Shown here: piece after piece, positions 16,741 through 28,348 of the stretch
Layout of the letters: each line of letters opens with the position of its first letter
How positions within the stretch are numbered: the stretch's first letter is position 1
Assembly: GCA_963818965.1 (NCBI GenBank)
Contig: CAWFUG010000002.1
Location: forward strand, 64,001 to 128,000
Direction of reading: 5' to 3'
DNA: 64,000 nucleotides
Origin: an uncultured Verrucomicrobiae bacterium
GTDB taxonomy: Bacteria > Chlamydiota > Chlamydiia > Chlamydiales > Rhabdochlamydiaceae
Notes under the pieces: model-generated
The model's input: only the letters and a program-made list of their open reading frames with translations
Database searches by the model: none
Told to the model about the DNA's origin: nothing
Translations under genes and position numbers: made by a program

Positions 16741-16929
16741 ATGTCCACTTCAGCTATTGGAAATCAGATTATTTTTAATTTTGCTTGGCAAGGCCCTAAC
16801 ACAAAGCACGGAGGGATAGCGAATGATGGCTTGAGTCCACGATTAATCAACTCTGTGAAGAATTTAAAGAGGATTGCATACGACAGGCAGGATCCTAGGA
16901 GTATGGATCCACTGCGTCAGTTACAGTAG
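16741..16929 (+). CDS. Short hypothetical ORF, possibly a truncated gene remnant
   Basis: Strong AAGGAG RBS and ATG; 62 aa; 3' end overlaps convergent precursor pseudogene. Confidence 0.45.
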   Translation: MSTSAIGNQIIFNFAWQGPNTKHGGIANDGLSPRLINSVKNLKRIAYDRQDPRSMDPLRQLQ

Positions 16930-17222
16930 TCTGGAGAACTGCAGCCGCTTCCACCGGGGGGACCTATGGTAGCGCCGGCTGCGATCTTCAATAAGGTATC
17001 TTCAGACATTTCGCTTTCAGGTTTTGACGGCAAATTGAGATGGATCACCTTATGCGTGCTTTCGTGAATTTCAACATGCAGCTCTTTTGGTAATGAAATC
17101 CCTTCAGCAACTAGAACTGCTTTAGGGTTTTCCAGCAGTTTTTTCTTAAATGCAGGGTCGCTTCATGCCTTGGCAATGATTTTTGCCCATTTCTTTTGAA
17201 ACTCCTCTTGATGGCTTATCAT
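16917..17222 (-). pseudogene. NHLP precursor P5 with internal TGA at codon 20; core ATIGPPGGSGCSSPDYCN
   Basis: Manual translation MISHQEEFQKKWAKIIAKA*SDPAFKKKLLENPKAVLVAEGISLPKELHVEIHESTHKVIHLNLPSKPESEMSEDTLLKIAAG-core; TGA at 17163-17165 where paralogs have TGG. Confidence 0.93.
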
Positions 17223-25472: not shown

Positions 25473-28348
25473 CCTCTGCCATCGTGCAAAAAATTTTAAG
25501 CAACGGAGTGGAGACTCAGGTGCCTCCTAACCAGTCGATCTCCCTGTCTGATCAGGACACAGTGGTATTCTTAGAAAAGGGATCGGTCAATCTCTTTGCC
25601 ATTGAAAAGAAAGAGGGTCATCCCGAAGGCCTACGCACACTCATCACGACCCTTGAAGCCCCAACGCCGTTATTCGACTTTGTACTGCCACAAGATGCCC
25701 GCTACGCCATTCTCGCAATTACCGAGCAATCTTCTCGCCTCTTTAGCATCCCCCTAATACAGATCGAAAAAGAGATCGAAACAGACCCCACCTTTATCAC
25801 TCCTTGGATCAATCAACTCGCCTCCATCTACAAAAAAGAGAGCTGCTCAAAAAGCCCCGTCTACATCACTGCCCTTCAAGAAATTCAACTCCAACCAGAG
25901 ACACCCCTGGCGACACTACGCGCGAATACTCACGAAGAAAAGAACAAAATCGATTGGCTCCAAATCGAAGGAGAAGAGACCTCGTTTTTGGATTACCCTT
26001 CTCTCACAATCCCCAAAGGCCCTTTCCCCCTCACCTATACGGCATGGATCAAAAGTCCTACAGCGACCAAAGTCATAGCGGAGGCGCTCCCCAACAACTG
26101 GAAAACAGGGCTTTCCCATTTACACCAAGTGATCTACTCCTATCTCTCTTTGCGCCGGGAACTCGACAGCGCTGAAGCGAAAATTTTAGCAAAAAAACGA
26201 TTTGAAAAAGAGGAGAGTGAAATCCGCCACTCCCTCGAAGAGATGATCTCTGTCTTAAACCCCCTCGATTCTATCGCAACCCCACAGAGTTCTGACCCTC
26301 TTTTAGAAGCGTTTCGTCTCGTGAGCTCATCTCTTAAAATCCCCTTTATACCTCCACAAGAGCTCCCCCCACAAAAAAACGTCCTTGAACACGTCAAAGC
26401 GATCGCAGAGGCCAGCTCGATCCGTTACAGGCGCGTCCGATTATCGGGCACTTGGTGGAAAAACTTAAGCGGCCCCTTGCTCTCTTTTTATGGCGAGGCG
26501 CTGCAGCCCGTTGCTCTCTTAGAAACGAGATCGGGACACTACGAAATGGTAGATCCAGTGACACAGACGCGCACACGAGTCAATGCACAAATTGCAGCAG
26601 ACTTGGCCAAAGTGGGATTTTCTTTTTACCCCGCTTTCCCAAATGGACTGCAAAAAGGAAAAGAAGTACTGCGCTTTTATCTCAAACACCATGGAAAGGA
26701 ATTTATCCCTCTTTTTTTCTACAGCTTTATCGCTGCGCTCATCGCCCTTTTCCCGCCTTTAGCGATCAAAATTTTATTCAACAATGTCATCCCGAATGCC
26801 GATACCTCTTTATTACTCCCCATCACTGCGTCTCTTTTTTTGGCAGCTTTGAGCTCGTCTCTCTTCTTCTTGTTCCGCTCTCTTTCAAGCGCTCGGATCG
26901 AAGGACAAGCCAGCCAACTCCTCCAAACAGCCCTATGGGATCGTCTACTCAAATTGCCCACCTATTTTTTTCGCCGTTACACTTCTGGCTCGCTCATTTT
27001 ACATGTCATCTCCTCCGATCGGATCCGCGCTCTTTTAAGCGGCAATGCCTCCCGCGTCCTCTTCTCAGGCCTCTTTTCCCTCTTTTACCTCATCGCCATG
27101 GTAGCTTACGCCCCTATCCTCACCCTCATTAGCATCGGGATTCTTTTTTTGAGCATCCTGCTCAGCATCTCCTGCCTTGTCCTCTATGTAAAAATGCGCA
27201 GAGAATTTTATCAATGGGAGACGAAGATCCACTCCTTTGTGACCCAAATACTCTCTTCGATCGGCAAGCTGCGCATCGCAGGAGGTGAAAAAAGCGCTTT
27301 TTCCCACTGGGCTAAAGACTTTGCCCAGTACCAAAAAATAGCGTTCCGCTCGCAGTATGTGCAAAGCATCCTCTCCAGTCTCAATTACGTGCTGCCCTTC
27401 ACGCTCTATTTCGCCATTTTCCTCTACATGATCAAAAAAAACCCCGATCTTTCTATCGGCTCCTTTCTCGCCTTCAATACCGCCTTTATCAGCCTCTACA
27501 TGGCCATCATCGATCTCAGCAACACACTCTTTCGCATGGCTCCGATTATCCCTCAATGGGAAAGGACTAAAGTCATCATTCAAGAGCCTTTAGAGGAATT
27601 AAACGAACCCAAAGATCCCGGCGTTCTTCTAGGAGAAATCTACGTCGATGAAGTCTTCTTCAAATACGCGCCAGAGGACCCTTACATCCTGAGCAACATC
27701 ACCCTCAAGGCTAACCCAAAAGAATGCATCGGCATCGTCGGCCCTTCAGGCTGTGGAAAGTCGACGCTGCTGCGGCTGCTGCTAGGCTTTGAAAAAGCGA
27801 CGAGTGGTGCCATTTATTACGACAATAAAAACAGCGATCCCTTCTCCACTCATGGATTTCGCAAACAACTCGGGGTCGTCTTACAAGATGAGGGGATCAT
27901 CGCCGGATCGATTTACGACAACCTCACCTGTGGCGGGCTTTACACCCAAGAGCAAATCCTCAGCGCTCTTGAAAATTCAGGACTGGCAGAAGACATCGCC
28001 GCCCTGCCGATGGGACTACACACCTACCTAGCCGTAGGAGGCTCCACCCTCTCAGGCGGGCAAAAACAACGCCTCTTGATCGCAAGAGCTCTCCTGCCCA
28101 AACCCAAAATCCTCCTCCTCGACGAAGCGACGAGCGCTCTCGACAACCGCAACCAAGAAAAGGTGCTCTCCTGTATCGACCAACTCGACGTCACGCGCAT
28201 CATCATCGCCCACCGCTTGACCACGATCAAAAACGCCGACCGGATCTACGTCATGGAACGGGGGCGCTTCGTCCAAGTCGGGACCTACGAAGAGCTCGCC
28301 TCCCAACCTGGTTTGTTTGCGCTGATGCTCGAGCGCCAGCGTCTTTAA
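25469..28348 (+). CDS. NHLP ABC transporter permease/ATPase, second subunit
   Basis: Long N-terminal region, RRVRLSGTWW..GPLL, TMD, GPSGCGKSTLLRLLLGFE, LSGGQKQRLLIARAL. Confidence 0.93.
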   Translation: MTSAIVQKILSNGVETQVPPNQSISLSDQDTVVFLEKGSVNLFAIEKKEGHPEGLRTLITTLEAPTPLFDFVLPQDARYAILAITEQSSRLFSIPLIQIEKEIETDPTFITPWINQLASIYKKESCSKSPVYITALQEIQLQPETPLATLRANTHEEKNKIDWLQIEGEETSFLDYPSLTIPKGPFPLTYTAWIKSPTATKVIAEALPNNWKTGLSHLHQVIYSYLSLRRELDSAEAKILAKKRFEKEESEIRHSLEEMISVLNPLDSIATPQSSDPLLEAFRLVSSSLKIPFIPPQELPPQKNVLEHVKAIAEASSIRYRRVRLSGTWWKNLSGPLLSFYGEALQPVALLETRSGHYEMVDPVTQTRTRVNAQIAADLAKVGFSFYPAFPNGLQKGKEVLRFYLKHHGKEFIPLFFYSFIAALIALFPPLAIKILFNNVIPNADTSLLLPITASLFLAALSSSLFFLFRSLSSARIEGQASQLLQTALWDRLLKLPTYFFRRYTSGSLILHVISSDRIRALLSGNASRVLFSGLFSLFYLIAMVAYAPILTLISIGILFLSILLSISCLVLYVKMRREFYQWETKIHSFVTQILSSIGKLRIAGGEKSAFSHWAKDFAQYQKIAFRSQYVQSILSSLNYVLPFTLYFAIFLYMIKKNPDLSIGSFLAFNTAFISLYMAIIDLSNTLFRMAPIIPQWERTKVIIQEPLEELNEPKDPGVLLGEIYVDEVFFKYAPEDPYILSNITLKANPKECIGIVGPSGCGKSTLLRLLLGFEKATSGAIYYDNKNSDPFSTHGFRKQLGVVLQDEGIIAGSIYDNLTCGGLYTQEQILSALENSGLAEDIAALPMGLHTYLAVGGSTLSGGQKQRLLIARALLPKPKILLLDEATSALDNRNQEKVLSCIDQLDVTRIIIAHRLTTIKNADRIYVMERGRFVQVGTYEELASQPGLFALMLERQRL

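Follow-up and report, generated by a model that had tools for sequence, protein, structure and literature searches.

A probably functional gene cluster for exported azol(in)e peptides with nitrile hydratase-type leaders in an environmental chlamydia

Introduction

Chlamydiae, whose genomes are small, are confined to the interior of eukaryotic cells. Can a bacterium of this kind make and export chemically modified ribosomal peptides? The question is raised by a gene cluster at positions 16917-28348 of a 64,000-nucleotide stretch of DNA from an uncultured member of the Rhabdochlamydiaceae (assembly GCA_963818965.1, contig CAWFUG010000002.1, positions 64,001 to 128,000). This whole stretch is called the window below, and positions are given in its coordinates unless another contig is named. 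A sequence-only reading had assigned the cluster to the azol(in)e peptides whose precursors carry a nitrile hydratase-type leader peptide (NHLP), and had placed it in an intracellular chlamydia. From the computational analysis reported here, we think it likely that the cluster encodes a functional pathway for linear peptides that contain azol(in)es (LAPs, or thiazole/oxazole-modified microcins, TOMMs) with NHLP leaders, native to an environmental chlamydia. The proposal is built on observations of several kinds: the genes present and the families to which they belong, the catalytic residues, the coupling within operons, and the purifying selection seen in the leaders.

Organization of the cluster

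The open reading frame (ORF) list and family scans resolved the cluster into two divergent operons, in which the match of every gene is far beyond chance. On the minus strand the order of transcription is precursor D, precursor C, precursor B, the SagB dehydrogenase, precursor A, the fused cyclodehydratase and precursor E. Across a gap of 93 bases, the plus strand carries the HlyD adaptor and two ATP-binding cassette (ABC) proteins, ABC1 and ABC2. The divergent arrangement described by the sequence-only reading, with SagB and a fused YcaO protein on one side and HlyD, a C39-peptidase ABC transporter and a second ABC transporter on the other, was found in full. The features are as follows.

16917-17222, minus strand: precursor gene E; NHLP leader, 18-residue Cys/Ser-rich tail, in-frame TGA; TIGR03793, 75.9 bits
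17248-19503, minus strand: fused cyclodehydratase, 751 residues; N-terminal winged-helix/precursor recognition element (RRE) and E1-like leader-binding part, C-terminal YcaO
19485-19781, minus strand: precursor gene A, 98 residues; 83-residue NHLP leader, tail SCDYSYDSGACNVNQ; TIGR03793, 82.7 bits
19851-21188, minus strand: SagB/ThcOx-type FMN-dependent azoline dehydrogenase, 445 residues; TIGR03605, PF22767 (ThcOx), PF00881
21185-21463, minus strand: precursor gene B, 92 residues; tail AGYCPNSIQ; TIGR03793, 74.0 bits
21483-21767, minus strand: precursor gene C, 94 residues; tail ATAGGCACWGH; TIGR03793, 72.6 bits
21814-22086, minus strand: precursor gene D, 90 residues; tail AGFVTLM; TIGR03793, 74.2 bits
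22087-22179, no strand: divergent intergenic region of 93 bases between precursor D and HlyD; presumed shared promoter region
22180-23331, plus strand: HlyD-family periplasmic adaptor of the NHLP bacteriocin system, 383 residues; TIGR03794
23328-25472, plus strand: ABC1, with C39 double-glycine peptidase, permease and ATPase, 714 residues; TIGR03796
25469-28348, plus strand: ABC2, 959 residues; TIGR03797

Family calls were judged against the curated cut-offs of NCBIfam, and all seven models pass. The four intact precursors score 72.6-82.7 bits with the NHLP leader model TIGR03793 (cut-off 50.9), the cyclodehydratase 254.7 bits with the SagD-type YcaO model TIGR03604 (cut-off 219.25) and the dehydrogenase 172.5 bits with the SagB model TIGR03605 (cut-off 78.4). 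Scores of the export genes are 181.1 bits for HlyD with TIGR03794 (cut-off 156.2), 950.4 bits for ABC1 with TIGR03796 (cut-off 853.3) and 743.3 bits for ABC2 with TIGR03797 (cut-off 709.4), the last match spanning residues 276-957. These are the six models that had been proposed for a profile search, and each of them scored over its cut-off; the seventh, the leader-binding domain TIGR03882, had not been named and reaches 113.3 bits in the cyclodehydratase (cut-off 36.9).

The genes of both operons are closely packed. The stop codon of precursor A overlaps a Met codon of the cyclodehydratase (ATGA), whose true start is probably Met6, with its ATG at 19488-19486. In the same way, SagB starts at a GTG that overlaps the stop of precursor B (GTGA). 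HlyD and ABC1, and likewise ABC1 and ABC2, overlap by 4 bases. These overlaps give a gene layout suited to coupled translation. A scan for transcription signals was uninformative, both for promoter-like sites (12 against 10.7±3.2 expected) and for terminator-like sites (22 against 13.9±4.2).

Modifying enzymes

The cyclodehydratase aligns end to end with MusD (7u58, 1.8e-159), LynD (4v1t, 4.1e-159) and TruD (4bs9, 2e-152), and the alignment includes the SGKG...CEALER stretch. Its YcaO part matches PF02624 with 312.7 bits over profile positions 1-325 of 325, and PF21084 is matched as well. Residues 30-441 of the dehydrogenase align with CyaGox (5lq4/8pz5, 1.7e-74), with conservation of the W-K-Y stretch. 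Another search, of the genome collection with the YcaO protein, returned one real relative, from a cyanobacterial metagenome-assembled genome (39% identity), and seven weak matches from Bacteroidales.

Precursors

The genome contains seven NHLP genes, all over the TIGR03793 cut-off, of which five lie in the cluster and two (F and G) are orphans. The cluster precursors also match PF02979. Among solved structures, precursor A matches the MprE7 leader's NMR structure (8tb1, 7.9e-14) and the alpha subunit of nitrile hydratase (1v29, 8.6e-16). The leaders are 83 residues long and 40 invariant columns are common to the seven paralogues; the tails, of 7-18 residues after the conserved Gly83, are unalignable. 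Cys is present in five of the seven tails (those of D and of orphan F lack it), and three of the four intact cluster tails carry one or two. A junction motif I-A-A-G, small-residue and of double-glycine type, is found in the five cluster genes, and a hydrophobic-X4-Leu motif stands just ahead of the junction in all seven leaders. Leader dN/dS (the ratio of nonsynonymous to synonymous substitution rates) is 0.08-0.33 among the paralogues and 0.10-0.33 among A-D, with dS mostly saturated. The low ratios and largely saturated dS indicate that these genes are old duplicates under purifying selection and not recent copies.

All five of the leader-peptide genes previously reported for the cluster are present, four of them intact; the fifth, precursor E (17222-16917), is broken by an in-frame stop. 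Its codon 20 is TGA (17165-17163), where all six paralogues have the TGG of an invariant Trp20. The dN/dS of the E leader against its paralogues, 0.08-0.14 where computable, is similar to that of intact copies, so the TGA is either recent or a sequencing error; E is probably a recent pseudogene or the product of such an error. Among the matches listed for contigs of four DNA runs, none spans 17163-17165. Decoding of TGA as Trp was also considered and rejected: genes A, B and E all terminate at a TGA, so the genome is not recoded.

The same contig carries the orphan pair F/G some 64 kb upstream of the cluster, beyond the window (G000:C2:15449-15745 and 16191-16481; L047:9450-9746 and 10192-10482). 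A Fic-like gene and a gene for a pseudouridine synthase flank the pair. The orphan leaders are much like those of the cluster. No modifying enzyme was found near the pair, one of whose tails is Cys-free.

Export genes

The peptidase domain of ABC1 matches that of LahT150 (6mpz, 9.5e-41). Gln11, Cys17, His90 and Asp106 are in place and align with PCAT1 (4ry2) across the Gln/Cys/His/Asp positions. For the first 400 residues of ABC2, Pfam and PDB sequence searches were blank. A structural model of this N-terminal part built from 37 homologues (mean pLDDT, the predicted local distance difference test, 90.8) gave a pair of beta-barrel domains together with a long helix and a C39-like domain, and the modelled barrels resemble PKA regulatory subunits and CRP in Foldseek searches (E 1e-8 to 1e-6). 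The domain order of ABC2 is thus a tandem of cyclic-nucleotide-binding-like domains (about 1-205), a long helix (211-263), a C39-like domain (277-410), a permease and an ATPase. There is no Cys between residues 127 and 568 of ABC2. Its C39-like domain is hence Cys-free, and ABC1 alone would be able to cut.

The N-terminal arrangement of ABC2 (residues 1-263, window 25469-26260) is kept in homologues of about 950-990 residues from several phyla; no Pfam domain is recorded there.

Could these genes be a decaying remnant in a reduced genome, still recognisable while no peptide is made or exported? The nonsense codon in precursor E is what such decay would leave, and in the relative G202 the ABC1 gene (locus L056) is split into ORFs of 265 and 562 residues. 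Furthermore, the same-genus genome G355 has neither NHLP nor YcaO matches, although at 89% completeness and in 220 contigs it offers no proof of absence. Against decay, both modifying enzymes and the three export genes are full-length and keep their catalytic residues, four precursors are intact with leader ratios in the range given above, and translational coupling is kept. We consider a remnant improbable. The reading of the cluster as an NHLP/TOMM system with YcaO, SagB, C39 cleavage and type I export, proposed before this analysis, is supported by the family scores, the matches to solved structures and the conserved catalytic residues.

Proposed pathway

In the pathway that we infer, which extends to the chemical steps, the cleavage site, the partnership of ABC1 with ABC2 and the target of the peptides, four precursors would be made, and the fifth too if its TGA is an error or is read through, each as a folded 83-residue NHLP leader with a tail of 7-18 residues. 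The RRE of the fused cyclodehydratase would bind the leader through the first helix and the hydrophobic-X4-Leu strand. With ATP, the YcaO domain would convert Cys, and possibly Ser and Thr, to azolines, which the ThcOx-like FMN enzyme would oxidise to azoles. The C39 domain of ABC1 may then cut after the conserved Gly83, or one residue further on (G-A/G-S). The peptide would leave through ABC1, ABC2 and HlyD together with an outer-membrane protein of the OEP family, of which the genome encodes four at other places.

This order of reactions is proposed because of homology to the Mpr system, which comprises ten NHLP precursors (MprE1-E10), an RRE-bearing YcaO protein (MprC) and a flavin oxidase (MprD), and for which ATP-dependent formation of thiazolines followed by FMN-dependent oxidation to thiazoles was shown biochemically (PMC12455567). 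Binding in Mpr requires an L(X)4L strand together with the first helix of the folded leader (PMC12455567). Cyanobactin-like enzymes, NHLP leaders and a LahT150-like peptidase together lead us to predict linear azole peptides of 7-15 residues. That the products would be linear and not macrocyclic follows from the NHLP leaders and from release by a C39 ABC exporter. For a cut after Gly83 and a loss of 20.03 Da at each Cys, the calculated tail masses would go from 1624.58 to 1584.53 for A, from 951.41 to 931.39 for B and from 1032.39 to 992.34 for C; that of the unmodified tail D is 737.38.

The pathway might also work with another end chemistry: it could stop at azolines, it could act on Cys only and leave tails D and F unmodified, or the peptides could be kept in the periplasm. 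Cyanobactin heterocyclases related to the cluster enzyme vary in their use of Ser and Thr, and the ORF list and family scans revealed no outer-membrane gene within the cluster. On the other hand, the ThcOx-type oxidase is intact and translationally coupled to precursor B, and the four OEP-family genes are available in trans. MprC prefers Cys (PMC12455567), which two of the seven tails lack. On balance we regard these variants as rather unlikely, and oxidised, exported peptides as the expected products.

Several points count against a functional pathway of the proposed kind. The genome is only a draft, 87.85% complete, and one of the five cluster precursors (E) has a stop codon inside it. What the Glu residues of YcaO and the Lys-Tyr pair of SagB do in these enzymes is presumed. 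Tail D has no Cys, its single Thr being the sole cyclisable residue, and the tail of orphan F is Cys-free too; for such tails, the preference of the characterised MprC for Cys is unfavourable (PMC12455567). Finally, the first position of the hydrophobic motif is V, I or M in four of the seven leaders and L in three (A, F and G); in the L(X)4L motif of Mpr, Val and Phe are tolerated, and the substitutions examined did not include Ile or Met (PMC12455567).

Chlamydial host and integrity of the locus

The genome amounts to 2.24 Mb in 12 contigs, with 87.85% completeness and 1.72% estimated contamination. It encodes an Hc1 histone-like protein (54.8 bits) and gives four matches to the TLC family of nucleotide transporters, three of them full-length at 560-738 bits. 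No FtsZ was found in the genome, as against 13 of 14 control genomes with FtsZ, which at 87.85% completeness is weak evidence alone. These traits bear out the earlier suggestion of an intracellular chlamydia as host.

A mis-assembly or a mis-binned fragment could nevertheless have brought the cluster in from another soil bacterium. This explanation can point to the draft state and estimated contamination of the assembly, to the label 'Verrucomicrobia bacterium' on the nearest named YcaO relatives, and to the left border, which is spanned by no piece among the matches listed in the read-derived check. That check used small shares (0.06-0.12) of four DNA runs, giving contigs of 150-340 bases with several bins uncovered; at 28348 the right border is bridged by a pair of short contigs that come from other runs. 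The cluster lies deep in its contig, about 81-92 kb into 186 kb, and has a GC content of 48.9%; ranked among 373 windows, its tetranucleotide distance to the genome mean is at the 51st percentile. Some 3.4 kb to its left stands a repeat, about 50 bases long and dispersed, with 26 matches spread over 9 of the 12 contigs. G355, of the same genus, has matches to it on many contigs as well. The window contains the repeat at these sites, with matches genome-wide:

13393-13444: dispersed repeat, about 50 bases
13312-13368, other strand: dispersed repeat
49919-49995: dispersed repeat

On the right flank, a 301-residue ORF belongs to a protein family with nine matches in this genome; out of 91 genomes from the same chlamydial family, 49 have matches to it. 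The protein family was not found beside NHLP clusters elsewhere (17 compared loci). Typical composition, the genome-wide repeat, a lineage-typical flank and the bridged right border make a border chimera unlikely. Homologous clusters are moreover found in single-contig chlamydial genomes such as G392, and the YcaO protein groups with chlamydial sequences, as described below. Taken together, a foreign origin is extremely improbable; the genome is chlamydial and the cluster is native to an environmental chlamydia. An empty insertion site could not be demonstrated in G355, whose contig ends 570 bases past its RluF homologue.

Three further features of the window were noted around the cluster. Directly to its right, the region 28381-30753 is of low GC (0.39-0.40 against about 0.48) and contains three ORFs without assigned function; these were tried as cluster members and dropped, no homologue lying beside any of the 17 compared loci. 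Just to its left, 14293-16587 encodes a protein of 764 residues that matches the inverse-autotransporter beta-domain (PF11924, 6.6e-08) and is rich in repeats towards its C-terminus. A homologue with 37% identity stands 3.8 kb upstream of the G202 NHLP cluster (L056:2202-4166), in another chlamydial family and at one of the 17 loci. Further left, 5302-6495 encodes a 397-residue protein with a helix-turn-helix N-terminus, which matches the spr1629 repressor/antitoxin family (3.4e-22) and, less strongly, the Wmk male-killing family of Wolbachia WO (1.1e-11), both far below cut-offs.

Distribution among chlamydiae and YcaO phylogeny

In a survey of the phylum, 400 genomes were scored and one further genome was unscorable. 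NHLP matches occur in 52 of the 400 genomes, over the cut-off in 39 of these, and SagD-type YcaO matches in 35, over the cut-off in 18. Thirteen genomes from three families, this one included, have both NHLP matches and a YcaO over the cut-off. We compared 17 loci, several of which stop at contig ends. A fused YcaO is present in 16 of them, and of these 16 it is accompanied by an adjoining NHLP gene in 12, by SagB in 14 and by the full HlyD/ABC1/ABC2 set in five. Across the 12 related chlamydial loci, 18 of 20 NHLP ORFs have Cys in the tail.

The phylogeny of 55 YcaO proteins was estimated as a quick maximum-likelihood tree, with the SH-like approximate likelihood-ratio test (SH-aLRT) as its only support measure. 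Left out were the cluster's own fragment P0003, three proteins shorter than 640 residues (P0005, P0035 and P0037), P0043, P0044, and P0004, a duplicate of L058. The window YcaO falls in a clade of 18 (SH-aLRT 98) composed of 14 chlamydial rows from three families and four metagenomic proteins. Because the families are intermixed in this clade, YcaO has likely been transferred within the phylum or lost there patchily, as judged from the tree. Three YcaO rows of a fourth family form a separate clade, with a cyanobacterial protein nearby.

Other arrangements were seen in the survey. The fused YcaO and SagB pairs at L061-L063 (genomes G369, G245 and G118; family f6) fall in a separate clade of the YcaO tree, and no NHLP gene was found near them. 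Precursor ORFs of 167 and 178 residues, at L055:7781-8284 (G159) and L057:3345-3881 (G316), have two tandem NHLP leader domains and a single Cys-rich tail. Four genomes (G253, G099, G114 and G323) give 10-13 or more NHLP matches each, with a tandem array at C46:60674-63792 in G114. No SagD-type YcaO match was found in G253 or G114, and the sole match of G099 is far below the cut-off; in NHLP-rich genomes without SagD-type YcaO, other modifying enzymes are presumably at work.

The suggestion that such pathways are new to this lineage did not hold as stated. Both genes co-occur in the 13 genomes above, with NHLP-YcaO adjacency at 12 loci, and two publications already list LAP (PMC9666466) and proteusin (PMC13229535) clusters in chlamydiae. 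In the 2010 paper defining NHLP, Victivallis alone appears under 'chlamydia group' (PMC2887384). A later antiSMASH survey describes biosynthetic clusters as widespread among chlamydiae; in its Data S10, LAP regions are given for three chlamydial genomes, which belong to three families, and two genomes have thiopeptide regions (PMC9666466). A 2026 paper tabulates a proteusin cluster for a chlamydial symbiont of hydra (PMC13229535). The cluster type is hence recurrent and catalogued in chlamydiae. As for its being already characterised there, a possibility raised by the sequence-only reading, the literature searched (most subscription journals lay outside the search) contained no characterised chlamydial product and no gene-level account of such a cluster or product from a chlamydia.

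Discussion

The chemistry of this cluster is of a known kind, and a few percent of chlamydial genomes carry the same genes. No biology of a new kind is revealed: the enzymes' reactions have been demonstrated in other systems, and clusters of this sort had already been noted for the phylum in surveys. Its interest is the host, an obligate intracellular bacterium that keeps an export-ready azole-peptide pathway. The maintenance of about 11 kb for secreted modified peptides suggests a benefit in the intracellular niche, where the targets of the peptides might be rival bacteria within amoebae, or else the host. Since there are only a few tails, all very short, prediction of the products is simple and they are directly testable. 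The combination of cyanobactin-type enzymes, NHLP leaders and a LahT-like exporter could also be useful for engineering leader-guided peptide modification.

A wider and more tentative proposal, which we hold to be possible if speculative, is that environmental chlamydiae possess their own clade of cyanobactin-type heterocyclase clusters, through which they would export a small library of thiazole peptides of 7-15 residues from within the host cell, acting on the eukaryotic host or on co-resident bacteria. If so, no ribosomal natural product of an obligate intracellular bacterium would have been characterised before such peptides.

Comparison with known systems

The Mpr system resembles the cluster in having several NHLP precursors with leaders of about 81-83 residues and short variable cores, an RRE-bearing YcaO protein and an FMN oxidase. 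The L(X)4L motif that stands directly before the core in Mpr has a hydrophobic-X4-Leu counterpart here, and the MprE7 leader structure 8tb1 is matched by precursor A. The differences from Mpr are the host phylum and the first motif position, which is L in three leaders here and V, I or M in four of seven.

Cyanobactin pathways provide the best solved-structure matches, MusD, LynD, TruD and CyaGox/ThcOx, and share the fused RRE/E1-like/YcaO architecture. In contrast to them, the cluster has NHLP leaders and a C39 ABC exporter for release, and no PatA/PatG-type protease or macrocyclase and no PatE-type precursor was found among its family-matched ORFs of at least 80 residues (16917-28348), none of which is a subtilisin. 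Assignment to the cyanobactin class was consequently rejected, although both enzymes are of cyanobactin type. The class of proteusins in the polytheonamide sense was rejected as well: the leader type alone is shared, and neither in the cluster nor in the scanned flanks was there a gene for a radical-SAM epimerase or another enzyme of proteusin tailoring.

The antiSMASH calls of LAP, proteusin and 'RiPP-like' (peptide made by the ribosome and modified after translation) regions concern the same phylum and the same broad class, in the form of table entries without gene-level description. The ABC1 C39 domain is like LahT150 (6mpz), with its catalytic residues in place; at the junction, A-A-G precedes a tail that opens with A or S, where a double-glycine site would have G-G. 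With this domain, the ABC half-transporter, the HlyD adaptor and outer-membrane OEP proteins encoded in trans, the export system qualifies as type I export by a peptidase-containing ABC exporter (PCAT/AMS). The export genes correspond to the NHLP export set of Haft, Basu and Mitchell 2010 (PMC2887384), with TIGR03794, TIGR03796 and TIGR03797 all over cut-off.

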